From an uncultured Gammaproteobacteria bacterium (GTDB lineage: Bacteria > Patescibacteriota > Microgenomatia > Daviesbacterales > UBA10151), in NCBI GenBank assembly GCA_964649615.1, contig CAZYPW010000003.1, positions 30,132 through 94,131 on the forward strand: 64,000 bases of DNA. Direction: 5' to 3'. Of this stretch, positions 1,277 to 63,641 are shown in pieces. A model generated the notes under the pieces. That model had not been told where the DNA came from. It searched no databases and saw only the letters and a list, made by a program, of their open reading frames with translations. The first letter of the stretch is position 1; the number at the start of each line of letters is the position of its first letter. Both the position numbers and the translations under genes were made by a program.

Positions 1277-2800
1277 ATGTTTAATATAAAAACTATTCAT
1301 CTTTTGTTTTTAATTTTTGCTGCTTCTTTACTAATAAGATTTTTATATTTTCCAGAAAATATCTATTTTGGTTATGACCAGGCCAGAGATGCTTTTGCCA
1401 CAGCTGAAATTTTATCTGGGAATTTAAAAGTAGTTGGCCCTCCAACTACATTTACTGGTTTGAACCACGGAGTGCTATATTATTATCTTTATTCGCCATT
1501 TTATTTTTTAGACAGTGGAGATCCTTCATTTCCTGCAGCTTTCTTAAGAATTATTAATGCCACGGGTATTTTTTTAGTTTTTTTATTAACATCAGTTTTA
1601 TTTAATAAATATGTAGGTTTAATTTCGAGCCTACTGTTTGCTTTTTCTTTTGAACAAACCCAATTTGCCCTTTACTTAAATCACCCATCTTTAGCTGTTG
1701 TAAGCATCTTGATAATGTATTTAGGATTAGCACTTTTGATATTTAAAAAAAAGAGACTAGGGCTTATAGTTGCAAGTTTGGGTTTAGGGTTATCTATCCA
1801 ATTTGAATTTATTTTAACTTATTTAATTGTGCCTTTTATTGCCATGCTAATCTATCTTAGAAAAGAAATAAAGATTAACTTAAAAGATATTCTGGTTGCT
1901 ACTTTAGTTTTTTTACTGAGCATATCAAGTTTTATAGTGGGTGAGTTTAAATTTGGCTTTACGTCTTTTCAATCTCTCCCTTCTCTTTTTTTGGGAGCTG
2001 AAAAATCTATTAGTAATATATTTGCAGGATATATATATAGCATAGATCAGATGATTAGGTTTAATTTTGGCTTGCACCAGCATAATTTTTTGTTTGTAAT
2101 TGCTTTACTTGCTTTTCTAAAACTACTTTTTTCAAAAGTAAAAAAACAAATGATCTTTTTGGGTTTTTGGTTTTTTTCTGTTTTCTTAATATATATTGTT
2201 AGTGGTGGAGGAGATAGCAGTTCATCAGTTGTTCAATATCATCCAAATGTGGGGACTTCAATTAGTTTATTAATTTTTATTTCTTACCTAATCTATAGTC
2301 TATTTTTAAAATCCAGAGTGCTTGCAGCATTAGTTCTAATTATAATTATTGGCTTAAATCTATCAATGATTTTAAAATTTAACCAAACAGGCAGTATAGC
2401 TGAAATTAATGCCCAATCAGGGATGCTTTTATCAGATGAAAAAAAGGTCTTAGATTTTATCTACCAGGATAGCCAAGGCAAACTATTTGCTGTCAAAGCC
2501 ATCACCATGCCTTTTTATATTAATACTACCTGGAGTTATTTATTTGAGTGGTATGGATTACAAAAATATGGATATTTACCCATTTGGGGTGGGAAAAATG
2601 CCTTAGGCTACGGGGGTAATTTAGTAGTAGAAACAGCCCAGGACAAATTACCTGATATTCGTTTTCTAATCATAGAGCCTATTAGAGGTATACCCCAACA
2701 TCTTATCAATGAATTTTTAGAAGAGGAAAGTTATTTTAGTGATATACTTCTAGACATAAAAATTGGTAAATTTACAGTACAAAAAAGAATTAAAAAATAA
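1277..2800 (+). CDS. Polytopic membrane protein, putative GT-C fold glycosyltransferase (ArnT/PMT-like)
   Basis: Many predicted TM helices. First-loop motif YFGYDQARDAF...GPPTTFTGLNHGVLYYYLYSPFYF is shared with the GT-C domain of the 18326..20506 fusion protein. Confidence 0.5.
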   Translation: MFNIKTIHLLFLIFAASLLIRFLYFPENIYFGYDQARDAFATAEILSGNLKVVGPPTTFTGLNHGVLYYYLYSPFYFLDSGDPSFPAAFLRIINATGIFLVFLLTSVLFNKYVGLISSLLFAFSFEQTQFALYLNHPSLAVVSILIMYLGLALLIFKKKRLGLIVASLGLGLSIQFEFILTYLIVPFIAMLIYLRKEIKINLKDILVATLVFLLSISSFIVGEFKFGFTSFQSLPSLFLGAEKSISNIFAGYIYSIDQMIRFNFGLHQHNFLFVIALLAFLKLLFSKVKKQMIFLGFWFFSVFLIYIVSGGGDSSSSVVQYHPNVGTSISLLIFISYLIYSLFLKSRVLAALVLIIIIGLNLSMILKFNQTGSIAEINAQSGMLLSDEKKVLDFIYQDSQGKLFAVKAITMPFYINTTWSYLFEWYGLQKYGYLPIWGGKNALGYGGNLVVETAQDKLPDIRFLIIEPIRGIPQHLINEFLEEESYFSDILLDIKIGKFTVQKRIKK

Positions 2801-2808
2801 AAGCCAAT

Positions 2809-4329
2809 ATGAATTCTGTTAATAAATTAATTTTAATAATTTTATTTATAGGGGTTTTATTTAAGCTAGCATTAACTGGGAGTGGCAGCTTTTTGTTTAA
2901 TATGGATAATGCTAGAGATTTAGTTGATGTGAGAGAAATGGTGGTTTTACAAAAATTAAGGTTAATAGGCCCAACTTCTGCCATTGAAGGGTTATTTAAC
3001 GGGCCAGCCTGGTATTATCTTTTGGCAGTGCCAATTATTCTAAGTAATGGAGATCCTTACTCTACTATTGTCTTGCAAATTGTCCTTTGGGCAGTGGGTG
3101 GGTTTTTCCTTCTAAAAATTGTTTCAAAGTGGAATAAATTATTAATACTGTCAATTGGCTTTTTATGGGTGGCATCTGATTATATAAATTTAGCTACTTC
3201 ATATGCATTTAATCCAAATCCGCTCACTTTACTAAGCCCACTTTTTATATATCTTTTATATAAGTATTTGGAAACCAGTAAATTATTTTTTATTTCATCT
3301 GCTTTTTTTCTGGGCGGATTATTTTTTAATTTTGAGATGAATTTTGGAATTTTTATCCCAGCAATTATTTTTACAACTATCTTTATTTTAAACAAACAGC
3401 TTTTAAAAACAAAATCTTTTTGGATAGGTTCTTTATTTTTTATTGCCTGTTTGCTGCCACAGCTGATGTTTGAGCTAAGGCATAATTTTTTTATGGCCAA
3501 CTCTGTAATTAATTTTTTAAGAAATAGTGAAACACCTTTTTTTAATATCTTTATCAGGTTTCAGTCTTTAACAGATAGTTTTTTCAGTGTATTTTCAGCC
3601 ACTCTAATGAATCATAGGACACTTAGTTTTCTGATTCTTTTACTTTTTATTCCCATCCTGACCAATCTTATAAAGCAAAAACAAATGGATAAAATTGCCT
3701 TAATTTCTTTAATATACATCTTTCTGCCATTTTTCCTTTATCTTTTCCTGCCAGTCACAGTAAATGCCTGGCATTTAGGCGGGCCAGCATCAGCAGCAAT
3801 CATCTTGATAGGATTTTTATTTAAAAAACTCTGGGAATATAATTTAGTTGGAAAAGCTATATCTTTAACTCTTTCTATCATGATCTTTTGGTATGCAATC
3901 TTTGGGATTGGTAAGTTTATCTTTCAGGATAGGTTTACTGCTAACTTAGACCCCTCACTTTATAAAAATGAGATAGCAGCTATAGATTATGTCTATAAAT
4001 ATGCCAAAGGTGAAAATTTCAAAGTATTTGTGTTTATGCCTTCAATCATAGATTATCCTTACCAATACTTATTTTGGTGGTATGGAAAAAAAGAATATGG
4101 ATATATTCCTTATGAATATGCTTATGCTCCCAATAAGCCCCAATATATTAGCAACAAAGATAAATTTGAAGGAAGTAAAGAAAATTATAAAGGATTAGTC
4201 TTTTTAATTAAGGAACCCAATAGGGGCTTTAATTATAAAAGTGGTTGGGAAGCAGACTATAGATTTATGGAGCTTATTGCTCAGAACAAAGTAGGTAATC
4301 TAGAGATAGAGGTTAGGAAGGAATATTAA
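2809..4329 (+). CDS. Polytopic membrane protein, putative GT-C fold glycosyltransferase (paralog of 1277..2800)
   Basis: Same architecture, length (506 vs 507 aa) and first-loop motif (FNMDNARDLVD...GPTSAIEGLFNGPAWYYL) as the neighbouring gene. Conserved C-terminal YGY.P motif. Confidence 0.5.
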   Translation: MNSVNKLILIILFIGVLFKLALTGSGSFLFNMDNARDLVDVREMVVLQKLRLIGPTSAIEGLFNGPAWYYLLAVPIILSNGDPYSTIVLQIVLWAVGGFFLLKIVSKWNKLLILSIGFLWVASDYINLATSYAFNPNPLTLLSPLFIYLLYKYLETSKLFFISSAFFLGGLFFNFEMNFGIFIPAIIFTTIFILNKQLLKTKSFWIGSLFFIACLLPQLMFELRHNFFMANSVINFLRNSETPFFNIFIRFQSLTDSFFSVFSATLMNHRTLSFLILLLFIPILTNLIKQKQMDKIALISLIYIFLPFFLYLFLPVTVNAWHLGGPASAAIILIGFLFKKLWEYNLVGKAISLTLSIMIFWYAIFGIGKFIFQDRFTANLDPSLYKNEIAAIDYVYKYAKGENFKVFVFMPSIIDYPYQYLFWWYGKKEYGYIPYEYAYAPNKPQYISNKDKFEGSKENYKGLVFLIKEPNRGFNYKSGWEADYRFMELIAQNKVGNLEIEVRKEY

Positions 4330-12349: not shown

Positions 12350-12514
12350 ATGAATGTAGTAACTTATATAATGGTTTTTGCTTGCCTTTTATATCTGATA
12401 TGGGCTTTAATTTATCATAAAAAAGATAAAAGTTTGACTTATGTTACAATTTTGGAGTATGTTTTAACTGCTGTTTTAGTGCTAATGTTACTAACAGGAG
12501 TAATCCAACAATGA
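12350..12514 (+). CDS. Possible small (~54 aa) two-TM membrane protein, stop overlapping rmlA start (ATGA)
   Basis: Manual translation gives MNVVTYIMVFACLLYLIWALIYHKKDKSLTYVTILEYVLTAVLVLMLLTGVIQQ. Below the ORF-track size cutoff. Fills the otherwise empty 165-bp gap. Confidence 0.25.
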   Translation: MNVVTYIMVFACLLYLIWALIYHKKDKSLTYVTILEYVLTAVLVLMLLTGVIQQ

Positions 12515-28509: not shown

Positions 28510-28513
28510 GGAA

Positions 28514-33510: not shown

Positions 33511-33519
33511 AAAAAGATT

Positions 33520-46165: not shown

Positions 46166-46202
46166 TTTACTAAGCAGTAAGAAACTGGTAAGATTTTTAC
46201 AT

Positions 46203-47102: not shown

Positions 47103-47108
47103 ATCTAT

Positions 47109-47909: not shown

Positions 47910-47912
47910 CCC

Positions 47913-52446: not shown

Positions 52447-54019
52447 AGAAAATTGGTTAATCGTTTTACTTATTATTTTAGCACTATTTATCCGAATAGT
52501 TCCTATAGATTTCCCCTTTTTTACATCTGATGAAGCAAGGATAGCTGTTAGAGGATACTCTCTTGCCACCAGCGGTAAGGATGAGTTAGGTAGGTTATAT
52601 CCGCTGCTTTTTAACTCACTAGTTGACTACCAATTGCCTGCTGTATCATATATTACAGCTTTGGGTGAAATTGTTTTTGGCAGGTCTGATTTTGGAGTAA
52701 GACTGCCATTTATTCTATTAGGGGTGGCTCAAGCCTTATTAATTTACAAAATAGCCCAATTTTTTAGTCCTAGGAAAGAGTTTTGGTTTTTTGCTTCATC
52801 AGTGACAGCATTCTCTCCCGGCTTAGTTTTCTTTTCTAAAACTCCCAATGAATACATAGTTTTAGTATTTCTACTTTCTTTTCTATTTTACTCTTTAATC
52901 AAAAGTAACCCAAACTCAAAGCTTATTTTAATCCTGATTATTTTACTGTTTCTATCATCCAAATTTGCTTGGTTTATAGTGCCTCCATTTGTAATATTAA
53001 CCCTGATATTTTTTCCGCATAATTTACAAAGGAAAACTAAGCTCAAAATTTCTTTAGTGTGTATTTTAATATCATTTTTAGCTCTCCTTATTTTTTGGCA
53101 GGTTCCCCAATCAGGCAGGTCACTTCTAGAGAATAACTTTTCTATTTTTTCTGACCTGACCATAAAAAATGGCATTAATCAGTTAAGAGGGCAGGGATTA
53201 CAGTCTCATTGGCCTTCCTTCTTGGAAAAAATACTTTTTAACAAAGTACATTTTCTAGTAGTAGGTTTCTTAAACTGGTTTTCTCAACTGCAGCCAGCAA
53301 ATTTCTTTGGATCTATTAATGCAGGTATTTTACAAAAAGTATTGATTATCCCTTTTGTGATTGGATTGGGATACATAATTAGCAGGGGCAAGCGAAAGGA
53401 GATTATGCTGTTAATTTATCCATTTTTCTTAACTTTTCCTTTACTGTTTCTATCATTGAATAATAGCAAGGAGCTAATTTTATTTGCCTTGCCTTTTGTT
53501 TCTTTAATCATAGCTTTAGGATTTATTCATCTTAACCATATAGCCAGAGTCCTTATTATAGGCATCATGGTTTTTGAAATTGGAATTAATTTTTTAAATT
53601 TAGATATGAATAAAAAGATAAGTAATGAGTTACGGCCTTCCTGGGTAAAGGAGATGATAATAGATGGTTTAAATACTTCTTCAAGCCAAAGAGTAGCTTT
53701 TTCTGATGATTTGACAAATGATATTGCACCTTTCATTCAATGGTTTGGAAAGCTAGAAGCTAAAGATTATGAAGATATAAAATTTCCCTATAAATTTCGC
53801 CAAAACAGGGTTTCAGGCATAAAAATTATCAGCTCAGATAGGATTTTTTATAAATGTGGTTATGATAAACCTACCTATATTATTGCCAGCAAAAGAGATG
53901 TAGCAGAAATTGAAAGATGGTTAAATGTAAAAACGGAGGAAATCACTATAAAAGCATATAAAGATAATTTAGGTTATGAGGTAGCTTACTTTTTTGAACC
54001 AACCATATGCATTCAATAA
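52436..54019 (+). CDS. GT39/ArnT-like GT-C glycosyltransferase, array member 2
   Basis: FFTSDEARIAVRGYSLATSGKDELGRLYPLLF...GVRLPFILLG. Confidence 0.65.
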   Translation: MKPKENWLIVLLIILALFIRIVPIDFPFFTSDEARIAVRGYSLATSGKDELGRLYPLLFNSLVDYQLPAVSYITALGEIVFGRSDFGVRLPFILLGVAQALLIYKIAQFFSPRKEFWFFASSVTAFSPGLVFFSKTPNEYIVLVFLLSFLFYSLIKSNPNSKLILILIILLFLSSKFAWFIVPPFVILTLIFFPHNLQRKTKLKISLVCILISFLALLIFWQVPQSGRSLLENNFSIFSDLTIKNGINQLRGQGLQSHWPSFLEKILFNKVHFLVVGFLNWFSQLQPANFFGSINAGILQKVLIIPFVIGLGYIISRGKRKEIMLLIYPFFLTFPLLFLSLNNSKELILFALPFVSLIIALGFIHLNHIARVLIIGIMVFEIGINFLNLDMNKKISNELRPSWVKEMIIDGLNTSSSQRVAFSDDLTNDIAPFIQWFGKLEAKDYEDIKFPYKFRQNRVSGIKIISSDRIFYKCGYDKPTYIIASKRDVAEIERWLNVKTEEITIKAYKDNLGYEVAYFFEPTICIQ

Positions 54020-55623
54020 TAATTATAATTTTGATAGGATCATTTTTGCGCTTTTATCAGCTTGCTGAATACCCAATACATCTAAACCATGATGAAATAA
54101 CTCAACTTTATGATGCCATATCAATCGCCCAAACAGGTAAAGATATTTACGGTAACTTCCTACCGTTTATTTTTTCGTCAGTGGGAGATTTTAAGCCCCC
54201 TTTTTATACTTACATAACCAGTTTATTTTATTTTTTATCTGGCTGGAGTGAATTAACTATTAGATTACCTGGTGCTATTTTTGGTGTTTTAATCATACCA
54301 GCAGTTTATTTTTTTACACAAAAGTTTTTAAGCAGTCGAGGCATTGCTTTAATTGCTGCTTTTTTTACTGCCATAGCTCCATTTGAGATATACTTTTCAA
54401 GAAAAAGCTTTGAAAATGGTGCAGGGATATTCTTAATGCTTACTGGCTTTTTATGCCTGCTCAATTACTTTACAAACAAAAAACCCCGTTGGTTATATCT
54501 TGCGTCCTTGGTATTTGCAGCTGGAATGTATACTTATTTTTCCCACGCCATAATTATTCCGTTATTAATAACCGTTTTTATTTTTATATACAGGAATTAT
54601 TTTTCATCTAAATTAAGTAGCTATTTTCTTCCAATTGTATTTTTTATAACCTTGATTTCACCTCTAATTTTTATGATTCTGACAAATCCTGATGTAAGAT
54701 ACAGATCTCAAACAGTTTTTATATCTCAGGATGTTGCCTTAGGTCACCAATTAGAGCTTGGAAAAACTAATAATCTCGTAACTAACTTTCTATTACAAGG
54801 AAGCATTATATTAAGTTATAGTTTTGATAGATACCTAAGACAGTTTGACCCAATATATTTATTTTCCAATGGTTTAGATTTAACTAACCAAGGTTTATTG
54901 GGCTCTGGTCCTTTGCTTTTAGTACAATTCCCCTTTTTGATTTTTGGAATAATTAGCCTCCTAAAAAATCCAAACCAACAAAGAGCAAAGAAGTTTATAG
55001 CTACATGGATTTTAATAGGTATGCTGCCAAGTGCTTTTACTTTTGAAAGCCATAGTCCTCATAGAGTGGCTATGGTTTTTACCATGCTTAATATAATTTC
55101 TGCAGTTGGGCTTTATTATTTTTTAAAATCCATTAGGCATTTTAAGCAATATTTTTTAAGTACTTTAGCCCTAGTTCTACTGCTAAATCTGGTATTTTTT
55201 TTGCACATATATTTTGTTAATTTCCCTTTTGAAAAATCTCATTATCTTCAGTATCCCTTTAAAGAAGTAGCTAAGTTTGCTTGGTCTGAATATCCCAATT
55301 TTGAAACAATAGTTTTTGATCCCCAATTTGGCGATACAGCTCCGTTTATTGGAACAGGCGCGCATTATTATTTGGCTTATTATGGGCATTATTCGCCCAA
55401 GAAATTTCAAGAGAATTTTCACAAAGGATCAAATCCAAGAGAGGTAATTTTTGATAAATTCTCTATAAGGCAAGTATATTGGCCTGCAGATAAGGATAAG
55501 AAAAATACACTTTTTATTGTAAGCATATGGAGTGTTCCTCTGGATACAGTTGACCCTAGTAAGATCATTAAAAGATTTAATTTTTATAATGGTAAATTGG
55601 CCTTCTATGCCATAAAATTATAA
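54007..55623 (+). CDS. GT39/ArnT-like GT-C glycosyltransferase, array member 3
   Basis: LNHDEITQLYDAISIAQTGKDIYGNFLPFIF...TIRLPGAIFG. Confidence 0.7.
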   Translation: MHSIIIIILIGSFLRFYQLAEYPIHLNHDEITQLYDAISIAQTGKDIYGNFLPFIFSSVGDFKPPFYTYITSLFYFLSGWSELTIRLPGAIFGVLIIPAVYFFTQKFLSSRGIALIAAFFTAIAPFEIYFSRKSFENGAGIFLMLTGFLCLLNYFTNKKPRWLYLASLVFAAGMYTYFSHAIIIPLLITVFIFIYRNYFSSKLSSYFLPIVFFITLISPLIFMILTNPDVRYRSQTVFISQDVALGHQLELGKTNNLVTNFLLQGSIILSYSFDRYLRQFDPIYLFSNGLDLTNQGLLGSGPLLLVQFPFLIFGIISLLKNPNQQRAKKFIATWILIGMLPSAFTFESHSPHRVAMVFTMLNIISAVGLYYFLKSIRHFKQYFLSTLALVLLLNLVFFLHIYFVNFPFEKSHYLQYPFKEVAKFAWSEYPNFETIVFDPQFGDTAPFIGTGAHYYLAYYGHYSPKKFQENFHKGSNPREVIFDKFSIRQVYWPADKDKKNTLFIVSIWSVPLDTVDPSKIIKRFNFYNGKLAFYAIKL

Positions 55624-55695
55624 TCACTAGCAGAAAACCCCGTTTTCTTAAAACGAGGATGAATGCTAAAGTGATTACAGTCTTCCGCGGGATAG

Positions 55696-55769
55696 GTGGT
55701 ATACTGAGTTAAGGTTTTCTGCAGTTTCTTGTAAACTTTTAAAGAAAACCGCGGACTCTCAGTCCGCGG
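55696..55769 (+). promoter_or_regulatory. Extended -10 promoter (TGgTATACT) followed by a perfect GC-rich palindrome CCGCGGACT-ctc-AGTCCGCGG 13 nt upstream of the next GT39 start
   Basis: TGGTATACT at 55696-55704. 9-bp-arm palindrome at 55749-55769. Both read directly from sequence. Confidence 0.4.
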
Positions 55770-55781
55770 AAGTTTATAACT

Positions 55782-57431
55782 ATGAAATACAAATTATTGA
55801 TTCTTGGATTGATAGTGCTCCTGGCATTTTTTCTTAGGTTTTATAAAGTGACTGAAATTCCGCCTGCCTTAAATTGGGATGAAGTCTCAATTGCATATAA
55901 TGCATATTCTATTTTGCAAACTGGAAAAGATGAGTGGAATCAATTCTTTCCTCTACACTTTAAAGCTTATGGAGAATACAAATTACCAATCCAAATATAC
56001 TTAAGTATTCCAGCCATATATCTATTTGGTTTAAATGAGCTGGGGATTAGAATAACACCTGTTATATATGGAACTTTGACAGTTTTGGTGATGTTTTTTT
56101 TAGGAAAAGAGATTTTTGGAAGTATCGTAGTGGGGTTTATTTCAGCTTTTTTGCTGGCAGTTTCTCCGTGGCACATCCAGCTTACCAGGGGTTCTTTCGA
56201 ATCCTCTTTTGCGACATTTTTTGTTACTTTAGGCATTTGGCTTCTTCTCAAAGGTTTTAAAAATAATAAGTGGTTTGTTGTTGCTATGGTCCCATTTGCG
56301 CTGTCAGCTTTTACCTATAATACTGCCAGGATTTTCACCCCGCTTTTCCTACTGACGACAGGTTTCTTATATAGAAAAATATTGATTCGTTCAAAAGAAT
56401 TTGTAATATACTCAATAGTAGTATTCACCATATTACTTTTACCACTAACACCGTATGTTTTAAGCGGAGAAAGAAGTGCAAGGTATAAATTAGTCAGCAT
56501 TACTGATGATCCAGGCCTGGTTCCTCGCATTAATGAGAATAGGGGAAACTCTAAATTACCTGCTCCTTTGCCAAAATTAATACATAACAAAGTTACCTAT
56601 ATTTCTTTTTACTTTGTCAGAAACTACTTAGCTCATTTTAGTCCTCAGTTTTTATTTACTTCGGGTGCACCTCACAGGCAGCATCATGTTCAAAATATAG
56701 GACAACTTTATTTATTCCAAGCACCGTTTTTATTCATTGGGCTTATTTGGCTTTTTAAATTAAAACACAAATTCAAAAATCTATTATTATCTTGGGTATT
56801 ACTGGCATATATTCCAGTTTCAGTGACTGGCGATAGCATTCCTCATGCCCTAAGAACTCTTATTGCAGCTCCTTTTTATCAATTAGTTACTGCTTTTGGT
56901 TTTTGGGTTTCACTGAGGTTTATTAAAAAAAGCTCAAAAACAATTAAGCTAGCTTTTGCACTCATTTTAGCTATAATTGTAGTCTCAAGTATTACTTATT
57001 ATCTAAATCAATATTATAATATTTACCCTAAAAAATACTCTAGAGACTGGCAATATGGATACAAGCAAGTTATAGATTATATTAAGAAACATCAAGCAGA
57101 ATATGATTTAATTGTTTTTTCAAGGCACTATGGTGAACCGCATATGTTCACCTTATTTTTTTTAAATTATGATCCTGCAAAGTATCAAAGTGACCCGAAT
57201 TTAATAAGATATGAAACTAATGATTGGGTATGGGTTTTAAAGTTTGATAAATACTATTTTCCAGATTTAGGAGATGAGGGGACTCAATTTGAGGATATGG
57301 TTAAAAGCAGTAGGGGAAAGAAGATACTGTTTGTAGGTAGACCAGGTGATTTTCCAAGAGAAATACCAAGACTTTTATCAATTAATTTCCTAAATGGTGA
57401 GAATGCTTTTGATATCATAGAGGTTAAATGA
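55782..57431 (+). CDS. GT39/ArnT-like GT-C glycosyltransferase, array member 4
   Basis: EIPPALNWDEVSIAYNAYSILQTGKDEWNQFFPLHF...GIRITPVIYG. Confidence 0.75.
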   Translation: MKYKLLILGLIVLLAFFLRFYKVTEIPPALNWDEVSIAYNAYSILQTGKDEWNQFFPLHFKAYGEYKLPIQIYLSIPAIYLFGLNELGIRITPVIYGTLTVLVMFFLGKEIFGSIVVGFISAFLLAVSPWHIQLTRGSFESSFATFFVTLGIWLLLKGFKNNKWFVVAMVPFALSAFTYNTARIFTPLFLLTTGFLYRKILIRSKEFVIYSIVVFTILLLPLTPYVLSGERSARYKLVSITDDPGLVPRINENRGNSKLPAPLPKLIHNKVTYISFYFVRNYLAHFSPQFLFTSGAPHRQHHVQNIGQLYLFQAPFLFIGLIWLFKLKHKFKNLLLSWVLLAYIPVSVTGDSIPHALRTLIAAPFYQLVTAFGFWVSLRFIKKSSKTIKLAFALILAIIVVSSITYYLNQYYNIYPKKYSRDWQYGYKQVIDYIKKHQAEYDLIVFSRHYGEPHMFTLFFLNYDPAKYQSDPNLIRYETNDWVWVLKFDKYYFPDLGDEGTQFEDMVKSSRGKKILFVGRPGDFPREIPRLLSINFLNGENAFDIIEVK

Positions 57432-59047
57432 AAGCAGGGATCTTGCTACCCTTAACAAGGTTTTTTAGTAAAAACTATTTATTTTTCCTAATTTGTTTAT
57501 TGTTTCTTTTAACCAGACTTTTTATGATTTCCGGAATTCCCCCTTCTGTTTATTGGGATGAGGCATCGATAGGATATAATGCGTATTCAATTTTACAAAC
57601 TGGAAAAGATGAATGGGGTGAATTTATGCCCATCCACTTTCGGGCTTTTGGCGAATTTAAGTTGCCTGTTTATATTTATTCAGTAGCAATATTTGAGAAG
57701 ATTTTTGGGTTAAATGAATTGTCAATTCGATTGCCCGCAGTGTTTTTTTCCTTAGCCACTGTAGTTTTAACTTATTTAATAGCTTTAAAATTAATTAACA
57801 AGCAGGCTGCTCTTTTCAGTGCTTTCTTTATGAGCATTTCTCCTTGGTTTTTTATATTTAGTAGAGTTGGTTATGAAATTTCGGCTGGTTTAGCATTCTA
57901 TCTATTAGCAGTTTACTTATTTTTGTACGCATTTAAAAAAAAATATCTATTTATAATAACCACTCTTAGTTTGATCTTAAGCCTATATAGCTATAACAGT
58001 TTTAGGATAATATCAACAGTAACCTTTATAATTTTTATTATAATGCTGCTTCGAAAAAATATTAAAGGCTTCATATTAATTGCATTAATAGCTACTTTAA
58101 TTTTTTTGTCTAGCATGATTCCCATAATTAAGCTATTTATATACGATGCTGGTTTTGGTAGAGCCCAAGCTTTTACTTTATTTCCCACCATACAGCAGGT
58201 TTATGATCTTTCAGGAAAACCCCGCCTTCAATTAATTTTTGACAGGTCACAATCTACTGACTGGAGTAAAAATGTGATGATGATTTTTAAAAACTATCTT
58301 TCTCATTTTAGCCCCCCTTTTCTTTTATTTGAGGGTGATTCTAATCCAAGAAACCAACAGCCTGGGTTTGGTCAAATTTATATTCTGGACCTGATCCTAA
58401 TTATATTTGGAATTTTGTATATTAAATCCTTAAAAAACAAATGGATAAGCTTAATAGTTTTATTGTTACTTTTGGGGTTTATCCCAGCCAGTCTTTTTAA
58501 GGAATCTCCCCATTCTCTGCGTTCTCTTCCGGCACTTCCTTTTCTGATATTAATTATCAGCTGTGGCGCAACTTATTTATCCACTAAATATGCTAAATTG
58601 CCATACATAATAATTACTATCTATAGTGTATTATTTATAGTTTATTTTCAACATTTTATAGGCAGTTATTCCAAAGATACCTCACAGGATTGGCAATATG
58701 GCTATAAAGCTCTTTTTGATGAATATAAAGATAAATTTAAAGATTATGAAAAAGTTGTGATTTCTGATGACTATGCCCAGCCTTATATATTTGTGTTGTA
58801 CTATTTAAAATACCAGCCTAATTCTTATCTAGCTTCTGTTGGATATAACAGCGTGCAGGATTGGGGATTTTCTAAGGTAGAGAAATTTGGTAAGTTTGAA
58901 TTTCAAAAAGAGGAGAATTTAAAAATCTCAAATATGGGTAAAACTTTATTATTTACTACCAAAGATCAAACGGAGTTTTCTAAAGATTTAAAATCAACAG
59001 TAAAATTTCTGGATGATGAAGTTGCTTTTTGGGTATATGAGTTATGA
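57428..59047 (+). CDS. GT39/ArnT-like GT-C glycosyltransferase, array member 5
   Basis: GIPPSVYWDEASIGYNAYSILQTGKDEWGEFMPIHF...SIRLPAVFFS. Closest paralog of member 4. Confidence 0.75.
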   Translation: MKAGILLPLTRFFSKNYLFFLICLLFLLTRLFMISGIPPSVYWDEASIGYNAYSILQTGKDEWGEFMPIHFRAFGEFKLPVYIYSVAIFEKIFGLNELSIRLPAVFFSLATVVLTYLIALKLINKQAALFSAFFMSISPWFFIFSRVGYEISAGLAFYLLAVYLFLYAFKKKYLFIITTLSLILSLYSYNSFRIISTVTFIIFIIMLLRKNIKGFILIALIATLIFLSSMIPIIKLFIYDAGFGRAQAFTLFPTIQQVYDLSGKPRLQLIFDRSQSTDWSKNVMMIFKNYLSHFSPPFLLFEGDSNPRNQQPGFGQIYILDLILIIFGILYIKSLKNKWISLIVLLLLLGFIPASLFKESPHSLRSLPALPFLILIISCGATYLSTKYAKLPYIIITIYSVLFIVYFQHFIGSYSKDTSQDWQYGYKALFDEYKDKFKDYEKVVISDDYAQPYIFVLYYLKYQPNSYLASVGYNSVQDWGFSKVEKFGKFEFQKEENLKISNMGKTLLFTTKDQTEFSKDLKSTVKFLDDEVAFWVYEL

Positions 59048-60639
59048 TAAATTTAACCAAGATAATACTAATTATAATAATACTTCTAAGCTTTTTCCTA
59101 AGAGTATATAAATTAGACCAAGTCCCCCCTTCTTTATCTTGGGATGAGGCTGCTGTTGGATATAACGGCTGGACCATTGCAAATTATGGACAAGATGAAT
59201 ATGGAAAATTCTTACCATTTTATTTTAGATCATTTAGAGATGATAAACATCCAGTTCATATTTATGCAACTGCCTTCTCTACCAAAATTCTGGGACTAAA
59301 TGAATTTAGTACCCGCTTACCATCGAGCTTATTTGGAGTATTTAATGTTTTATTAATTTATTTTTTAGCAAAGATTCTTTTTAAAAAAGAGATTATTGGT
59401 TTAGCTGCTGCATTATTTTTAGCAATTTCTCCTTATAATTTACACTTTTCTCATTTTAATCATGAGGTTAATTTTGCCCTCTTTTTCTTTTTATTGGCCT
59501 TAATAATGTTTTACTTATCTTTAACAAAATTTAAGATACTGCTACCAATATCACTTTTAAGTTTTATTATTTGTTTTATAACATATCATCCATCAAAGAT
59601 TCTTGTTCCTATAACATTGTTAACCCTTTTGATTTTATATTTTAAAAATATTCTGAAAAATAGAAAAGGCTTGATAGCTTGTTTGCTGATACTTTTTGTG
59701 TTCTCTTTTATTATCAAAACTAACCCCGAGCTTTTAGGTATAGCCCGTGCATCCCAGAATTCTTTAAGCAGGGAAAAGATTGAAAAAACAAAGTTATTTC
59801 AATTAACAGGTAATGATTTATTAGGAACAGCAAATCTTGTTATAACTCAATATTTCTGGCACTTTTCCCCTAAATATTTGTTCATCCAAGGAGATGAAAA
59901 ACCAAGGCTTTCCTCACAAACAGGTGAGTTTTATCAGATTGATTTAATACTGATTTTAGCAGGAGTTTTATATTTATTTTTTCAAAAATCAAAAGAAGGA
60001 GTGGTCCTGCTTATTTGGTTATTTACTGCTCCACTGCCCTCTAGTTTGGTGAGCGAGGCTCCCCATGCAGCACGCGCCATGTATATGATGGGTAGCTGGC
60101 ATATAATTTCTGCAATAGGGTTTTATTTTATTGTTAACTTATTTAGAAAACTACTAATTAAAGCTTTTGTAATAGTACTAATTACTTTTATTTTAGGTAT
60201 ATCTTTATATAGTTACTTAAATTATTACCACAGCGAATATTCAAAAAGATATGCCATTGAGTGGCAATACGGCATGAAGCAAATTGTTGAGTTTACTAAA
60301 GAACACAAAGAGTATAATTTGGTTTTTATGACTGATATACGCTCTCAACCTTATATTTTTTTCTTATATTATCTTAAAACTCCTTTGCCTGAGTATTTGG
60401 ATAGTGTTATCTACAATAATAATATAGATAATAGGAGCTATAATAATGTGGCCAGTTTTAATGAATTTTCTTTTGGCGGATGGGACCCAACTGAAAGCTT
60501 ACCTAAGGAGGGGGTATTATATGTTGTTAGTCCCAGCCAGTATGATGGATTAAGGTACAAACCATTATTTGATGTTAAGAAGATAATATATTATCCAAAT
60601 GAAACAGAGGCTTTTTACTTAATTAGCATAAAGAAATAA
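59044..60639 (+). CDS. GT39/ArnT-like GT-C glycosyltransferase, array member 6
   Basis: QVPPSLSWDEAAVGYNGWTIANYGQDEYGKFLPFYF...STRLPSSLFG. Confidence 0.7.
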   Translation: MINLTKIILIIIILLSFFLRVYKLDQVPPSLSWDEAAVGYNGWTIANYGQDEYGKFLPFYFRSFRDDKHPVHIYATAFSTKILGLNEFSTRLPSSLFGVFNVLLIYFLAKILFKKEIIGLAAALFLAISPYNLHFSHFNHEVNFALFFFLLALIMFYLSLTKFKILLPISLLSFIICFITYHPSKILVPITLLTLLILYFKNILKNRKGLIACLLILFVFSFIIKTNPELLGIARASQNSLSREKIEKTKLFQLTGNDLLGTANLVITQYFWHFSPKYLFIQGDEKPRLSSQTGEFYQIDLILILAGVLYLFFQKSKEGVVLLIWLFTAPLPSSLVSEAPHAARAMYMMGSWHIISAIGFYFIVNLFRKLLIKAFVIVLITFILGISLYSYLNYYHSEYSKRYAIEWQYGMKQIVEFTKEHKEYNLVFMTDIRSQPYIFFLYYLKTPLPEYLDSVIYNNNIDNRSYNNVASFNEFSFGGWDPTESLPKEGVLYVVSPSQYDGLRYKPLFDVKKIIYYPNETEAFYLISIKK

Positions 60640-60641: not shown

Positions 60642-61415
60642 ATGAATCAAAGAGTATCAGTAGTTTTAGCTGTTTTTAATGAAGAGGAAAATTTGAAAGC
60701 TTGTCTTGATTCAGTAAAAGATTTAGCTTGGGAGATTGTGGTAGTAGATGGCGGATCTACTGATAAAACTCTTGAGATTGCAAAAAAATATAACGCTAAA
60801 ATAATTCAAACGACTAACCCTAAAAATTTTCACATAAATAAGAATAAAGCTATAGATAAAGCAATAGAAGATTGGGTTTTACAACTTGATGCAGACGAAG
60901 TAGTGACAGAAGAATTAAAAGAAGAAATCAAAGAAAAGATTGCAAACTCACAAATGAGTGGTTATTGGATTCCAAGAAAGAATTACTTTCTGGATAGATT
61001 TTTAACTAAAGGCGGACAGTACCCTGATTATACTTTAAGACTTTATCGTAGAGGTAAGGGGAGGTTGCCCGCAAAGGATGTACATGAGCAAGCTGAGGTT
61101 GAAGGCAAGATAGAGTATCTAAAGCACGACCTCTTACATATAAGAGATAAAAGCTTTGCTACTTATATACAAAGATTTAATAGATATACAAATCTACTTG
61201 CGCAGCAATTAGAAGATGCAAAAGTTAAAATATATATAATTTCTTTTCTAAATTATATATTAATTATGCCTCTTTTCTGGTTTATTAAAGTCTATTTCCG
61301 CCACAGAGGATATAGTGACGGTTTTTCAGGTTTTGTTTTTGCCCTTTTTTCATCATTAAGATTTTCTATAGCCTATATAAAATTATGGAGTAAATACAAA
61401 AAAGGAGACTTATGA
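60642..61415 (+). CDS. GT2 glycosyltransferase (paralog of 46203 and 47109 genes)
   Basis: VSVVLAVFNEEENLKACLDSV...VVDGGSTDKT...QLDADE. C-term ...IAYIKLW. Confidence 0.75.
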   Translation: MNQRVSVVLAVFNEEENLKACLDSVKDLAWEIVVVDGGSTDKTLEIAKKYNAKIIQTTNPKNFHINKNKAIDKAIEDWVLQLDADEVVTEELKEEIKEKIANSQMSGYWIPRKNYFLDRFLTKGGQYPDYTLRLYRRGKGRLPAKDVHEQAEVEGKIEYLKHDLLHIRDKSFATYIQRFNRYTNLLAQQLEDAKVKIYIISFLNYILIMPLFWFIKVYFRHRGYSDGFSGFVFALFSSLRFSIAYIKLWSKYKKGDL

Positions 61416-62485
61416 AGGTAGGGATTAATACAATACCGTTAAAAACAGCCCATAAATTAAGAGGCGTAGGCTACTATACCCAAAATCTTATCTTATCTTT
61501 AAGGAAAGACCCAAGACTTGAAGTAGTTGAGTTTACAGATTTATCTAAACTAAACAATGTAGATTTAGTGCATTATCCTTGGTTTGATTTTTATTTTCAT
61601 ACCTTGCCAATTAGGAAAAAATTTAAATCTGTGGTAACTATTCATGATACTATTCCTTTAGTTTTTCCTGAGCATTATCCAGTAGGATTAAAAGGAAAGA
61701 TAAATTTTATTTTACAAAAAATATCTTTAAAGAATATCCAAGCAGTAATTACGGATTCAAATTGCTCAAAAAATGATATTATAAAATTTTTAAAATTAAA
61801 GGAAAGCAAAATTTTTTCTATCCCTATTGCTGCTGAAGAAAATTTTAAAATCCTGGATAATATTAAATTAATAAAAGCAAAAAGAAGGCTTAATTTACCA
61901 AACCAATATTTATTATATGTAGGTGATGCTAACTGGGTGAAGAATTTACCCCTTTTGATAGATGGATTCTCCAAAATAATTAAAAAAAATAACTTTAATG
62001 ATTTGAAACTTATATTGGTTGGAGGAGTTTTTTTAAAAAAAGTTGAAAATATTGATCATCCAGAACTGGAAAGTTTAAAAAGAGTAAATAGATTAATTAA
62101 AGAATTAGATTTAGAAGATAAAATTATAAGATGTGGAAATGTGGAGAAAGAAGACTTAGTTGCTATATATAACTTGGCAACAATATATATACAACCATCA
62201 ATTTATGAGGGTTTTGGGCTGCCTGTCCTTGAGGCTTTATCCTGTGGTACTCCAGTGGTATGTTCTAATGGGGGAAGTTTGAAAGAGGTTGGAGGTAATT
62301 CGGTAGTTTATTTTGATCCTAAAAATCTATCGCAGTTTGTAAGTGCATTAGAGCAAGTTTTAAAGGATAAGTCAGTACAAAATAAACTAGCAACATTAGC
62401 TCTTAAGAGAGCATCGCAATTTTCTTGGGATAAAGTAGCCCAGCAGACCAAAAATGTCTACAGCAAGGTATTAAATGAGAAATAA
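61412..62485 (+). CDS. GT4 (group 1) glycosyltransferase
   Basis: EGFGLPVLEALSCGTPVVCSNGGSLKEV. 357 aa. Confidence 0.75.
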   Translation: MKVGINTIPLKTAHKLRGVGYYTQNLILSLRKDPRLEVVEFTDLSKLNNVDLVHYPWFDFYFHTLPIRKKFKSVVTIHDTIPLVFPEHYPVGLKGKINFILQKISLKNIQAVITDSNCSKNDIIKFLKLKESKIFSIPIAAEENFKILDNIKLIKAKRRLNLPNQYLLYVGDANWVKNLPLLIDGFSKIIKKNNFNDLKLILVGGVFLKKVENIDHPELESLKRVNRLIKELDLEDKIIRCGNVEKEDLVAIYNLATIYIQPSIYEGFGLPVLEALSCGTPVVCSNGGSLKEVGGNSVVYFDPKNLSQFVSALEQVLKDKSVQNKLATLALKRASQFSWDKVAQQTKNVYSKVLNEK

Positions 62486-63641
62486 ATTACTAACCATAAA
62501 TCCAGATTATCTAAAGATCGGACTTCTTTTTATTATATGGAAATCAATTCTTCTGATAGTCTTGTTTCTGTCAATTAGGTTTATCCCCTTAGGTTATACA
62601 GATCGATTCCTAGGTGGGGGGCCAATTTTATTTCATGTTGCCCCAGAGCTTTTTTCCTGGGCAAATTTTGATGGTGAACATTACCTGTCTATCTCCATAT
62701 TTGGATATAAATATTTAGAGCAAGCTTTTTTCCCGACTTTTCCATTTCTTATATCCCTTTTTGCAAAACCTTTTTCTTCGGATTTTGTGTCTCTTTTAGT
62801 TAATTCAGTAGTAGCAGGCCTTATGATCTCAAATATTTCTTTTTTATTATCCTTGATTGTTTTGTATAAGCTTATAACTTTGGATTATCATAAAAAAATT
62901 GCTTTTCTGACAATAATTATAATTCTTGTGTTTCCTGCATCCTTTTATTTTGGTTCCTTATATAATGAATCACTTTTTTTGCTTTTATCCCTTCTTTCTT
63001 TTTATAGCGCCAGAAAAGGTAAATGGTTTTTAGCATCAATTTTTGGAATTATTGCTTCTGCCACTAGAGTATTCGGTTTTTTGCTTTTGCCCGCGCTACT
63101 TTTAGAAGTATTAAATAAAAAGGCGGAATTTAAGAAATGGTTTTGGATTTTATTTATTCCCTTAGGTTTAGCATCCTATATGTTTTATCAACATATAAAT
63201 TTCGGTGATCCGTTGGCATTTTATAATCTACAAACAGTCGTAGGAGAGCAGCATCAACGCGGTATTATTTTGTTACCTCAAGTTTATTATAGATATATCA
63301 AGATGCTGCTTACAGTTGATATGACAAACCCGATATATCAAACAATTGTCTTGGAGTTCTTTATTGGGATATTATTTCTTATCTTACCCATAATAGGTTT
63401 TTTCCAAAAAGTAAGATTTTCCTATTTATTTTATGCATTAGTGGGATTTTTAATGCCTACTGTTCAAGGAAGTTTTTCTTCTATTCCTAGGTATGTTATC
63501 ATTTTTTTCCCAAGTTTTTTAATTTTGTCTTTACTTTTAGTAAAGATTAATATAATTTTAAGGGGAATAATTATTACACTTCTCTCAGTCTTCCTTATAA
63601 TAGAGGCAATGTTATTTTTCAGAGGATATTGGGTAGCATGA
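62475..63641 (+). CDS. Polytopic membrane protein, putative GT-C mannosyltransferase (PIG-V/GT76- or DUF2029-like)
   Basis: WANFDGEHYLSISIFGYKYLEQAFFPTFPFL resembles the PIG-V-type first loop. About 10 TM. Confidence 0.4.
   Translation: MRNKLLTINPDYLKIGLLFIIWKSILLIVLFLSIRFIPLGYTDRFLGGGPILFHVAPELFSWANFDGEHYLSISIFGYKYLEQAFFPTFPFLISLFAKPFSSDFVSLLVNSVVAGLMISNISFLLSLIVLYKLITLDYHKKIAFLTIIIILVFPASFYFGSLYNESLFLLLSLLSFYSARKGKWFLASIFGIIASATRVFGFLLLPALLLEVLNKKAEFKKWFWILFIPLGLASYMFYQHINFGDPLAFYNLQTVVGEQHQRGIILLPQVYYRYIKMLLTVDMTNPIYQTIVLEFFIGILFLILPIIGFFQKVRFSYLFYALVGFLMPTVQGSFSSIPRYVIIFFPSFLILSLLLVKINIILRGIIITLLSVFLIIEAMLFFRGYWVA

Follow-up and report, generated by a model that had tools for sequence, protein, structure and literature searches.

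The 64-kb window, i.e., the whole stretch of DNA analysed here, comes from an ultra-small, uncultured Candidatus Daviesbacteria bacterium (Microgenomates, Patescibacteria/CPR) and probably (at roughly three in four) encodes conserved machinery with which this lineage builds the glycans of its envelope at the external side of the cytoplasmic membrane. Its most likely function is that of an extracytoplasmic glycan assembly line supplied by polyprenyl-phosphate sugars. This reading draws on what was observed: the families and folds assigned, the conserved motifs, the order of the genes and their conservation across genomes (Table 1). An earlier note on this DNA described an extreme expansion of GT-C-type enzymes in one super-locus; its observation is confirmed, and its interpretation is supported in part.

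Table 1. Glycan-related features of the window
Gene	Assignment	Position	Strand	Evidence
g01	UDP-glucose 4-epimerase GalE	305..1231	-	NCBIfam TIGR01179 265.3 bits (cut-off 262.3); Pfam Epimerase
g02	GT-C, PMT_2-like	1277..2800	+	PMT_2 22.8 bits; YDQARD loop after TM1; ~11 TM
g03	GT-C, PMT_2-like	2809..4329	+	PMT_2 22.7 bits; MDNARD loop
g11-g13	rmlA, rmlB, rmlC (dTDP-6-deoxyhexose pathway)	12511..14808	+	NCBIfam
g14	GDP-mannose 4,6-dehydratase-like	14902..15915	+	Pfam GDP_Man_Dehyd 327 bits
g15	Polyprenyl-phosphate glycosyltransferase, GT2 + GtrA/DPMS-type 4-TM domain	15953..17137	+	Pfam Glycos_transf_2 + GtrA_DPMS_TM
g16	Small GT-C candidate, 381 aa	17134..18279	-	PMT_2 24.8 bits; ~9 TM; NFDGLEY loop
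g17	Fusion, N-terminal GT2 + C-terminal PMT_2 GT-C	18326..20506	+	Pfam Glycos_transf_2 96.8, PMT_2 58.3, PMT 44.9 bits
g18	Soluble GT2, GtrB/DPM1/ArnC-like polyprenyl-phosphate glycosyltransferase	20503..21246	+	PDB matches
g25	GT-C, PMT_2	27016..28509	+	PMT_2 49.1 bits; FADEA motif
g26-g29	Four tandem PTPS_related (PF10131) GT-C paralogues	28466..35253	+	H-D-D motif; CRWVPD
g30	Wzx/MOP flippase	35253..36722	+	Polysacc_synt_3 188.6 bits
g31	Signal peptide + extracytoplasmic DUF3863/CE4-deacetylase-like domain (~24-450) + g32-type GT-C domain (499-1135)	36719..40126	+	
g32	Unannotated GT-C family member	40126..42102	+	AlphaFold model
g33	GT-C, PMT_2	42099..43706	+	PMT_2 44.9 bits
g34	YfhO-family GT-C	43709..46324	-	Pfam YfhO 34.4 bits (GA 28.5); ~13 TM
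g35, g36 (GT2), g37 (GT4)	Cytoplasmic Leloir glycosyltransferases	46203..48995	+	Pfam Glycos_transf_2, Glycos_transf_1
g38	GT-C, GT87/PIG-M type	49023..50285	+	Homologues' domains
g39	SAM-dependent methyltransferase	50282..50935	+	Methyltransf_31/11/25
g40-g45	Six tandem PMT_2 GT-C paralogues	50935..60639	+	PMT_2 31-54 bits
g46 (GT2), g47 (GT4)	Leloir glycosyltransferases	60642..62485	+	Pfam
g48	PIG-V-like (GT76-type) GT-C	62475..63641	+	Pfam Mannosyl_trans2 46.2 bits (GA 22.4)
Second Wzx	Wzx/MOP flippase, N-terminal 121 aa	63638..64000	+	Cut by window end

GT-C glycosyltransferases account for 21 of 48 open reading frames

Of the 48 ORFs in the window that reach 150 aa, 21 are GT-C-type polytopic glycosyltransferases, together spanning 36,315 bp (57% of its length). 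Such a share for one superfamily is far beyond chance expectation; a handful of GT-C genes is typical of most bacterial genomes. With gene calls, a hydropathy count and Pfam scans, the tally (12 PMT_2/ArnT-like, four PTPS_related, YfhO, one GT87/PIG-M-like, one PIG-V-like, and g31/g32) reproduces the roughly 21 membrane proteins listed earlier nearly item for item. These proteins are glycosyltransferases and not transporters; only Wzx and FtsX are transporter-like.

The PMT_2 gathering cut-off of 26.1 bits is exceeded by nine genes (g17, g25, g33 and g40–g45), in agreement with the at least nine clear GT39/ArnT-like genes counted before, and g02, g03 and g16 score below it. The three genes described as ArnT-like with YxxDxxRD loops are g02, g03 and g17, all with a DxxRD loop; by BLASTP, g02 matches the GT-C domain of g17 (E 1e-8) and g03 (E 4e-12), and g03 matches g17 (E 1.5e-12). 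The tandem paralogues g40–g45 are 22–34% identical, and every one has a DE motif after TM1. D33, E34 and R90 are invariant in their alignment, and among PMT_2-type homologues the first-loop acidic motif, the catalytic DE, retains D in 318 and E in 327 of 336 (about 95–97%).

The four paralogues previously named for their CRWVPD motif, g26–g29, belong with PTPS_related: relative to a cut-off of 26.4 bits, g27 (39.8) and g29 (32.5) lie above and g26 (25.6) slightly under, and g28 gave no match to this family in the Pfam scan. They are 30–38% identical by BLASTP, D53 and D54 are invariant in their alignment, and hhalign relates them to the PMT_2 group at 97.3%. The C-terminus of g28 is similar by BLASTP to that of g34, which is the YfhO gene reported earlier. 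As listed, g34 overlaps g35 by 122 bp; its TTG start is probably too far upstream, an ATG near 46165 being likelier. The three remaining proteins of the earlier list correspond to g38, g48 and g16, the last a probable small GT-C, assigned tentatively (hhalign probability against the PMT_2 group, 62%). In the Pfam scan g38 itself has no match; its homologues (33–44% identity) bear PF09594 GT87, PF05007 PIG-M and PF06728 PIG-U domains. It is not a flippase.

Donor synthases, sugar genes and flippases adjoin the GT-C genes

Pfam, NCBIfam and PDB matches bear out the claim of three DPM1/GtrB/ArnC-like GT2s, one joined to GtrA (g15), one to a GT-C domain (g17) and one free-standing (g18). The top PDB match of g15 is Dol-P-Man synthase 5mlz (E 2.9e-28, residues 3–345). 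The ArnC/GtrB-like N-domain of g17 matches PgaC/IcaA first and then ArnC/PgfS/AglJ in NCBIfam, and g18 matches GtrB 5ekp (8e-16), DPMS 5mlz (1.5e-15) and ArnC (1e-14). The galE, rmlABC and gmd genes noted earlier are likewise present by NCBIfam, with top matches to rmlA (240 bits), dTDP-glucose 4,6-dehydratase (443 bits, over cut-off) and rmlC (150 bits), and a gmd match for g14 (325 bits, under the equivalog cut-off of 415); Pfam confirms the GT2/GT4 transferases and the methyltransferase. Of two reported Wzx flippases, g30 is complete (NCBIfam top match MOP flippase family, 164 bits, under the 273-bit cut-off), and the second is a partial gene (Polysacc_synt E 1.1e-5; Polysacc_synt_3 E 1.2e-4) lying essentially beyond the interval 1277–63641 to which it had been ascribed. 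Because all these genes adjoin the GT-C genes, the window can soundly be read as encoding an elaborate extracytoplasmic glycosylation capacity; the GT-C assignments and the acidic loop motif sustain this part of the earlier interpretation. Within the window we found no rmlD, no initiating phosphoglycosyltransferase of the WecA/WbaP type and no recognisable Wzy polymerase, and thus the Wzx-dependent part is incomplete here.

The arrays are conserved across Microgenomates relatives

Rather than one super-locus, the window holds three glycan blocks, at 1.3–4.3 kb (with galE at 0.3–1.2 kb), 12.5–21.2 kb and 27.0–64 kb. None of the genes between them, which are housekeeping and restriction-modification genes, is glycan-related: those at 4.3–12.4 kb encode TsaE, an LTD-domain protein, PcsB-like M23/FtsEX, RF2, an asparaginase-like protein, a TsaD-family protein (short ORF) and CAP-domain proteins, and those at 21.3–27.0 kb a zinc-ribbon protein, LexA, a restriction-modification system, an NYN-domain protein and a thioredoxin-like protein. 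From g24 to g33 and from g35 to the second Wzx, the genes lie close together on the same strand, with start codons that overlap stop codons, an arrangement that suggests operons.

Top matches to the window proteins come from Daviesbacteria and Microgenomates MAGs (68–74% identity), complete assemblies of relatives being ~1 Mb. The order g35–g48 is syntenic in ~40 related genomes or loci; orthologues of g35–g37 are 55–69% identical, g46/g47 stay adjacent to g45 and g48, and the g43–g48 core is almost unchanged. The g38–g42 segment varies between relatives, which is compatible with strain-level glycan diversification as well as with a fixed assembly line. GT-C density was 2–8 per 10 kb in 79 of 79 related loci compared, and tandem paralogues within the window are only 22–38% identical. 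To speak of an expansion in a single window is therefore misleading; GT-C richness is an old trait common to the related Microgenomates genomes compared, with no local duplication burst. Because g33 (21 loci) and g40–g45 (22–40 loci) each form their own exclusive orthologue clade, to which a locus contributes about one member, the paralogues are old and individually kept, which fits non-redundant, linkage-specific enzymes.

It is possible, if rather unlikely, that the paralogues are instead a diversification toolkit that decorates one finished surface polymer, in the manner of Gtr serotype conversion or Gram-positive YfhO/GtcA-type decoration, for phage evasion or tuning of host attachment and with no sequential pathway. 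The variable segment, the extra g43-like or g27-like copies inserted in some relatives, the presence of YfhO with three GtrB-like synthases, and the phage pressure shown by the nearby restriction-modification system would all suit such a toolkit, as would the thought that CPR bacteria are episymbionts. However, most paralogues are one-to-one orthologous across ~20–40 genomes at low mutual identity, and this, with the near-invariant g43–g48 core, argues for old, fixed functions over fast-turnover accessory genes.

The PMT_2 group is nearest to ArnT

The PMT_2 group profile has ArnT 5ezm as its top PDB match (E 4e-8). The group resembles the ArnT/PMT_2-type enzymes (CAZy GT83/GT39) in its 8–13 TM helices, the DE motif of the first external loop and a conserved core Arg; it differs in having 12 copies against the usual one or two per genome, in a short C-terminal alpha/beta domain, and in its three sub-threshold members. 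To our knowledge, a monoderm-like CPR cell also has no lipid A to serve as acceptor.

We consider it unlikely that the arrays are mainly PMT-like protein O-glycosyltransferases that add mannose or another sugar to Ser/Thr residues in secreted proteins, S-layer proteins or pilins, as actinobacterial Pmt does in protein O-glycosylation, the many paralogues serving different protein substrates. The Pfam PMT/PMT_2 models are partly built on protein O-mannosyltransferases, PMT (PF02366) is passed by g17, g42 and g43 and matched below threshold by g45, and a DPMS-like donor synthase is present. Yet PMT_2 does not tell acceptor types apart, the nearest solved relative modifies lipid A, PMT chains are absent from the PDB matches at E up to 1, and Pfam scans found no MIR or TPR acceptor-binding domains; the deacetylase-like domain of g31 and the Wzx/GT2/GT4 genes indicate glycan substrates.

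g31 and g32 belong to a GT-C family with a predicted OST-like fold

The two paralogues known from the earlier note by an HDGxWHLSL motif, g31 and g32, stand as a pair and, left unplaced there, can now be assigned. Sequence searches of Pfam, NCBIfam and the PDB gave no match for either, and they have no STT3 HMM match. The AlphaFold model of g32 (pLDDT 86) has a GT-C fold nearest to the oligosaccharyltransferases STT3/AglB/PglB, which it resembles in overall fold and C-terminal globular domain and from which it differs by three additional N-terminal helices; AftA and AftB are also among its structural neighbours. Among 162 members of the family, D130, H134, Y161, H162, K300 and R411 never vary. 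The WWDYG-like WYDTGY of g32 is restricted to its subfamily, the family-wide form being [YW]-x-[STD]-[TS]-[ASG]-Y. Because WWDYG is unconserved, the pair looks, on the model, OST-like in structure yet part of a distinct GT-C family, large and unannotated in databases. The fused N-domain of g31 is similar to CE4 deacetylases and ArnD, the sole hint to the acceptor class and one toward carbohydrate handling. g31 directly follows Wzx g30 with a 4-bp overlap; given that overlap, the Wzx–g31-type fusion in one database protein (P0363) could be a frameshift artefact.

That g31 and g32 are true oligosaccharyltransferases, moving a Wzx-flipped glycan en bloc onto proteins and forming with the DPM1-like, GT4 and GT-C enzymes a bacterial counterpart of ER N-glycosylation, is doubtful. 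The WYDTGY motif stands at the expected place in g32 orthologues, and g31 has Wzx as its neighbour, with its like fused to Wzx in P0363; against this weigh the narrow spread of the motif and the lack of any sequence-level match to STT3, PglB or AglB, and YfhO or PTPS_related, which have no solved structures, could be closer relatives. Finally, the genome was evidently assembled from a metagenome, yet mis-assembly or collapsed repeats can be set aside, since all ORFs are intact, paralogues this divergent cannot be collapsed repeats, and gene order is identical in dozens of independent assemblies.

A proposed glycan assembly line

In the assembly line that we favour, GalE, RmlABC and Gmd would provide nucleotide sugars, from which g15, the g17 N-domain and g18 would place single sugars on polyprenyl phosphate at the cytoplasmic face, g15 with its own GtrA-type membrane domain and the g17 synthase fused straight to its GT-C partner. 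In parallel, g35–g37, g46–g47 and the methyltransferase would make a lipid-linked oligosaccharide for export by the Wzx flippases. Outside, the ~21 GT-C enzymes, each with an acidic motif in the first external loop, would add sugars from lipid-phosphate donors, one linkage each time. With their OST-like fold, the deacetylase-like fusion and the position directly after Wzx, g31 and g32 are the best candidates to handle the flipped lipid-linked glycan, whether they transfer, ligate or polymerise it. What we infer here is how the steps follow one another, which sugars are used, what g31/g32 do and what the acceptor is.

The concept of lipid-P-sugar synthase, flippase and GT-C as three components is established (PMC11127046). 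Like GtrA/GtrB/Gtr*, ArnC/D/E/F/T and GT136 systems (PMC11127046), the window clusters synthases, a GtrA-type domain and GT-Cs, with an ArnD-resembling domain here fused to g31; it differs in its synthase–flippase and synthase–GT-C fusions and in a ratio of ~3 synthases to 21 GT-Cs, a scale that suggests backbone assembly beyond single side-chain addition. YfhO and the PTPS_related genes recall PF09586/PF10131 families, but in contrast to YfhO/GtcA-type teichoic-acid glycosylation in Firmicutes, four PTPS_related paralogues stand in tandem and no teichoic-acid synthesis genes were seen within the window.

Mycobacterial LM/LAM and arabinogalactan assembly (Emb, Aft, Mpt, PimE; decaprenyl-P-sugars) also employs many GT-C paralogues, presumably one per outside linkage, and lipid-P-monosaccharide donors; g38 is GT87/PimE-like and g48 PIG-V-like, and AftA and AftB are structural neighbours of g32. 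The window genes have no sequence orthology to Emb/Aft enzymes, and mycobacterial GT-C genes are scattered over a 4.4-Mb genome, against 21 in 64 kb here. By analogy, the assembly logic would resemble that of LAM/arabinogalactan and that of the eukaryotic ER N-glycan pathway in its lumenal half, and with g31 and g32 it would draw on a large enzyme family that no database recognises yet.

GT-C candidates lie in three glycan gene blocks

The window holds 48 ORFs of at least 150 aa (g01–g48), has a G+C content of 0.30–0.38, and contains no tRNA gene and nothing that would suggest a mobile element. A hydropathy scan of these ORFs found 7–15 hydrophobic segments in 22 proteins and five in FtsX (g06). 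Pfam scans of the 48 ORFs, BLASTP searches and the domains of homologues together identified 21 candidate GT-C glycosyltransferases, 20 of them well supported and one (g16) tentative, in agreement with the tally of about 21 in the earlier note. Each candidate has 7–15 hydrophobic segments, which we judged to represent a polytopic protein of at least eight TM helices, and an acidic motif in the first extracytoplasmic loop. The candidates span 36,315 bp (57% of the window) and, with the remaining glycan genes, amount to 35 genes covering 77% of it. Domain searches could have placed most of these membrane proteins outside the glycosyltransferases; instead most match glycosyltransferase families, although g31, g32 and g38 have no Pfam match. 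In NCBIfam, 10 of the membrane proteins of the window found no match.

The glycan genes had been described as one super-locus, a view that gives way to three blocks split by genes unrelated to glycans. The first gap holds TsaE, an LTD-domain protein, a PcsB-like M23 peptidase with FtsEX, RF2, an asparaginase-like protein, a short TsaD-family ORF and a CAP-domain protein; the second holds a zinc-ribbon protein, LexA, a restriction-modification methylase, an NYN-domain gene, a specificity subunit and a thioredoxin-like protein. In block 3 the genes lie close together, and start codons overlap the stop codons before them.

Features of the window, with the matches behind their assignments
Feature	Position (nt)	Strand	Assignment	Match or remark
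Left-edge ORF	1–336	+	F420-0:gamma-glutamyl ligase-like (CofE family)	C-terminal end
Glycan block 1	0.3–4.3 kb		galE, g02, g03	
g01			GalE	NCBIfam, above equivalog cut-off
FtsE, FtsX, PcsB-like, LTD protein	4732–8634	−	FtsE-FtsX-PcsB-like M23 peptidase operon, then LTD (lamin-tail-domain) protein	LTD protein of 386 aa
147-aa ORF	8638–9081	−		Between RF2 and FtsE; no Pfam match
177-aa ORF and adjoining 100-aa ORF	10623–11464		Asparaginase domain; TsaD family	N-terminal asparaginase domain only; partial match, possibly TsaB-like
Glycan block 2	12.5–21.2 kb		rml, gmd, g15–g18	
g11–g13			RmlA, RmlB, RmlC	NCBIfam
g14			Gmd-like	NCBIfam
g15			GT2 fused to GtrA/DPMS membrane domain	Pyrococcus Dol-P-Man synthase 5mlz, E 2.9e-28, residues 3–345
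g17, N-terminal			GT2	Best NCBIfam matches PgaC/IcaA, ArnC (2.4e-20), PgfS, AglJ
g18			DPM1/GtrB/ArnC-like synthase	Best solved relatives GtrB 5ekp (8e-16), DPMS, ArnC (1e-14)
g20–g23	21873–26444		LexA-like, methylase, NYN-domain, HsdS-like	
g24	26457–27011		Thioredoxin-like AhpC/TSA/Redoxin protein	4 bp upstream of g25
Glycan block 3	27.0–64 kb		g25 to second Wzx	
g30			Wzx	Polysacc_synt_3, 188.6 bits
g31	36719–40126		GT-C family without annotation	N-terminal DUF3863/CE4-deacetylase-like domain
g32	40126–42102		GT-C family without annotation	
g34	43709–46324	−	YfhO	
g35, g36, g46			GT2	Pfam
g37, g47			GT4	Pfam
g39			SAM methyltransferase	Pfam
Second Wzx, partial	From 63638, past window end		Wzx	Pfam; overlaps g48 stop

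Several neighbours of the glycan blocks have features of their own. The FtsE-FtsX-PcsB-like set is a Gram-positive-type division hydrolase module, and the LTD protein that follows it has hydrophobic segments at its N- and C-termini and is a possible surface protein. The 177-aa and 100-aa ORFs could be small CPR versions of the genes they match, or else genes that have been split or truncated. At the left edge, a CofE-family protein is surprising for a CPR genome of minimal metabolism. The gene of the LexA-like repressor g20 shares 4 bp with the start of g21, whose 645-aa product is an N6-adenine methylase that also contains an HSDR_N domain. With g22 and g23, g21 resembles a restriction-modification system transcribed together with LexA; a separate HsdR was not seen. 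The thioredoxin-like g24 is possibly co-transcribed with g25, the first GT-C gene of the large array; we know of no link between proteins of this type and glycosylation.

Family assignment of the GT-C candidates

Nine genes exceed the Pfam PMT_2 gathering threshold of 26.1 bits (g17, g25, g33, g40, g41, g42, g43, g44 and g45, at 31–58 bits), and g02, g03 and g16 lie below it (22.7–24.8 bits). The GT-C domain of g17 matches g02 (E 1e-8) and g03 (E 1.5e-12) by BLASTP. A DE motif follows TM1 in g17, g25, g33 and g40–g45, a DxxRD motif occurs in g02 and g03, and an FDG motif in both g16 and g48, two proteins with no significant BLASTP similarity to each other. By the positive-inside rule, the loops that carry the acidic motifs of the candidates would face outside. 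The catalytic D is kept in 318, and the E in 327, of 336 PMT_2-type sequences, which argues that these proteins are active enzymes.

PTPS_related (PF10131, GT-C clan; cut-off 26.4 bits) matches g27 (39.8 bits) and g29 (32.5 bits), with g26 just below the cut-off at 25.6 bits and g28 placed with these three by 30–32% identity. The four paralogues share a DD motif and match the PMT_2 group at 97.3% by hhalign. YfhO (PF09586; cut-off 28.5 bits) matches g34 at 34.4 bits, the aligned part being the C-terminal 80 residues only, and g48 is a Mannosyl_trans2 (PIG-V-type) protein at 46.2 bits (PIG-V model cut-off 22.4). The listed TTG start of g34 overlaps g35 by 122 bp; its first ~53 residues look non-native, and an ATG near 46165 ('MFILKDV...') is a likelier start. 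For g38, which has an HPD motif in its loop, a PDB sequence search gave nothing meaningful; many of its homologues at 33–44% identity carry GT87, PIG-M or PIG-U domains, and g38 is therefore taken to be a GT-C protein, not a flippase. Its candidacy as the second Wzx of the earlier note is thereby ruled out, the true second Wzx being the ORF cut by the window end.

The arrays are conserved among Microgenomates relatives

When g43, a PMT_2-type protein, was scanned against one genome per GTDB species, MAGs of Candidatus Daviesbacteria and related Microgenomates yielded orthologues at 57–74% identity, and weaker relatives came from Woese-, Shapiro-, Levy-, Curtiss-, Gottesman-, Chisholm-, Blackburn- and Beckwithbacteria. 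The window accordingly derives from a Daviesbacteria-like CPR bacterium. When all window proteins were compared by tblastn with 79 loci around these relatives, almost every Daviesbacteria-like locus had the order g35-g36-g37-(g38-g42)-g43-g44-g45-g46-g47-g48. The g43–g48 core is almost invariant among them; the g38–g42 segment is more variable and in some loci includes extra g43-like or g27-like copies. All 79 loci contain 2–8 GT-C-like ORFs per 10 kb, figures that show clusters to be widespread in the group and not a genome-wide density, since every locus was taken ±10 kb around a relative of one GT-C gene. Many of the GTDB representative MAGs with clear Daviesbacteria or Microgenomates orthologues are titled 'uncultured Gammaproteobacteria bacterium' (binchicken co-assembly TPA entries; loci L003–L072), evidently a placeholder or wrong name.

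Neighbour-joining analysis of 336 PMT_2-type proteins puts g33 and each of g40–g45 in an exclusive clade of its own; every such clade covers 21–40 loci, most of which contribute a single member. Together with the 22–38% identity among paralogues, this shows old duplications kept as distinct orthologues, so that the local "expansion" proposed earlier is not a recent burst. The conserved synteny and the same low identity rule out an assembly artefact. Whether the arrays act in diversifying decoration can be set against this pattern: the variable g38–g42 segment and extra copies stand beside an almost invariant core, and we regard such a role as a possible, tentative reading.

Donor synthases and flippases accompany the GT-C genes

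The three GT2 proteins g15, g18 and the N-terminal domain of g17 are synthases of the DPM1/GtrB/ArnC type found in Gtr/Arn-type three-component systems. Pfam scored the GtrA_DPMS_TM domain of g15 at 67 bits, and a free-standing GtrA was not found among the window ORFs. In DPMS, this GtrA-type domain anchors the enzyme itself in the membrane, so that a flippase role for it in g15 is uncertain. The GT-C candidates, with which three such synthases are co-located, may use polyprenyl-(di)phosphate-linked sugar donors. Pfam scans of the 48 ORFs and five short or end-truncated ORFs returned nothing above threshold for Bac_transf, MraY/WecA-type or Wzy proteins; the sole trace of Wzy in the scanned ORFs was a weak Wzy_C match in g29 (E 0.0047). 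The window is missing an initiating phosphoglycosyltransferase and a clear Wzy polymerase, as well as RmlD. The component families, together with the three-component and Wzx logic, are already known, and three-component glycosylation systems follow the same logic as proposed here (PMC11127046). The acceptor may be protein, wall polymer or lipid, and we consider it doubtful that protein O-glycosylation is the main role of the arrays.

The g31/g32 family has a predicted OST-like fold

A full HMM search with the profile of the g31/g32 family returned 1,759 clusters (50% identity) at E ≤ 1e-3 and 934 at E ≤ 1e-30. Among the family proteins P0001–P0120 and P0339–P0487, P0001 is identical to g32. 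Many clusters are g31-type fusions of ~1,000–1,160 aa, and many members are fused to an extracytoplasmic DUF3863/CE4-deacetylase-like domain. Neither Pfam nor NCBIfam has a model for the family: a Pfam GT-C match was found in 0 of 71 members scanned (31 + 40). In the PDB, the family profile had no sequence match at E up to 10, and searches with g31 and g32 gave nothing meaningful. Since hhalign relates the g32 family to the PMT_2 group at only 27% probability, the GT-C assignment of g31 and g32 rests on predicted structure. The predicted g32 structure is a helical bundle with a GT-C fold nearest STT3/AglB/PglB, and in g31/g32 this fold is predicted to be joined, as in OST-type enzymes, to a C-terminal extracytoplasmic globular domain.

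Five residues are invariant family-wide (D130, H134, Y161, H162 and K300) and N257, Q451 and Q460 nearly so; in addition, position 411 is conserved as R or K and position 243 as E or D. Such a pattern would be expected if the GT-C active site bound metal and phosphate. At the positions equivalent to WWDYG, g32 orthologues read W-Y-D-T-G-Y and g31 reads MYDSTAY. Across 162 family members the consensus is [YW]-x-[STD]-[TS]-[ASG]-Y, and "WYDTGY" was rejected at the family level as a true WWDYG motif, not being conserved among these members.

The Wzx gene g30 overlaps the start of g31 by 4 bp. One database protein of the family, P0363 (1639 aa), is a Wzx-g31 single chain, 55% identical to g30 and 48% to g31; this fusion is suggestive of functional coupling between Wzx and g31, and is possibly a frameshift artefact at the 4-bp overlap. 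A Wzx directly upstream and a Wzx-g31 fusion would suit true OSTs that transfer a lipid-PP-oligosaccharide en bloc to protein, an identity we hold to be unlikely for g31/g32, which share the predicted fold with STT3/AglB/PglB but lack both WWDYG and, in Pfam and PDB searches, a sequence-profile match to the STT3 family.

Discussion

The boldest reading, to which we give a probability of about 0.25, is that Microgenomates assemble a glycan outside the cytoplasm in many steps, on an ER-like line whose final step is performed by the previously unrecognised g31/g32 family, a deep structural relative of STT3/AglB/PglB. Our main reading, which we consider likely, is a series of inferred steps that builds on what was observed: the families and folds, the conserved motifs, the packing of the genes as in operons and their conservation across genomes. 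Nucleotide sugars (UDP-Glc/Gal, dTDP-6-deoxyhexose and GDP-6-deoxyhexose) would be made in the cytoplasm, and g15, the N-domain of g17 and g18 would load single sugars onto polyprenyl phosphate. A lipid-linked oligosaccharide, to be flipped by Wzx, would come from the Leloir GT2/GT4 enzymes together with the methyltransferase. Outside the membrane, GT-C enzymes would extend or decorate the glycan, one linkage per enzyme, and g31/g32 would process or transfer the flipped glycan. This series of steps follows the three-component systems on a larger scale, resembling mycobacterial LAM/arabinogalactan assembly or the lumenal ER pathway. On the ER-like assembly line of the boldest reading, the glycan would be built by DPM1-like synthases and GT4/GT2 enzymes together with a flippase and at least 12 linkage-specific GT-Cs.

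For CPR bacteria of a group noted for reduced genomes, both the size of the set and its conservation across the lineage are unusual, as are the synthase-GT-C fusion (g17), the deacetylase-GT-C fusion (g31) and a large, unannotated OST-like GT-C family. Among open-access papers and bioRxiv preprints we found no dedicated study of GT-C, GT39, mannosyltransferase or OST-like enzymes in CPR, Patescibacteria or Microgenomates; a passing remark credits one Microgenomates genome with "29 genes of glycosyl transferases" (PMC7143001).

The cluster is a defined gene set for glycan discovery, and its diverse GT-Cs with their donor synthases are a natural library of use in glycoengineering. The g31/g32 family could widen the known range and the evolutionary picture of OST-like enzymes; if the ER-like assembly line is real, the family would add a new class to the oligosaccharyl- or glycan-transferases of bacteria. 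CPR/Patescibacteria genomes are about 1 Mb and have shed most biosynthesis, and we know of no envelope chemistry for this group. That some 36 kb of one region is given to 21 outward-acting glycosyltransferases, individually conserved as orthologues in so reduced a genome, points to a complex surface glycan or glycoprotein coat with fitness value, plausibly in host attachment, phage resistance or envelope integrity. Should the ER-like assembly line exist, the episymbiotic lifestyle would be determined in large part by the envelope glycan.
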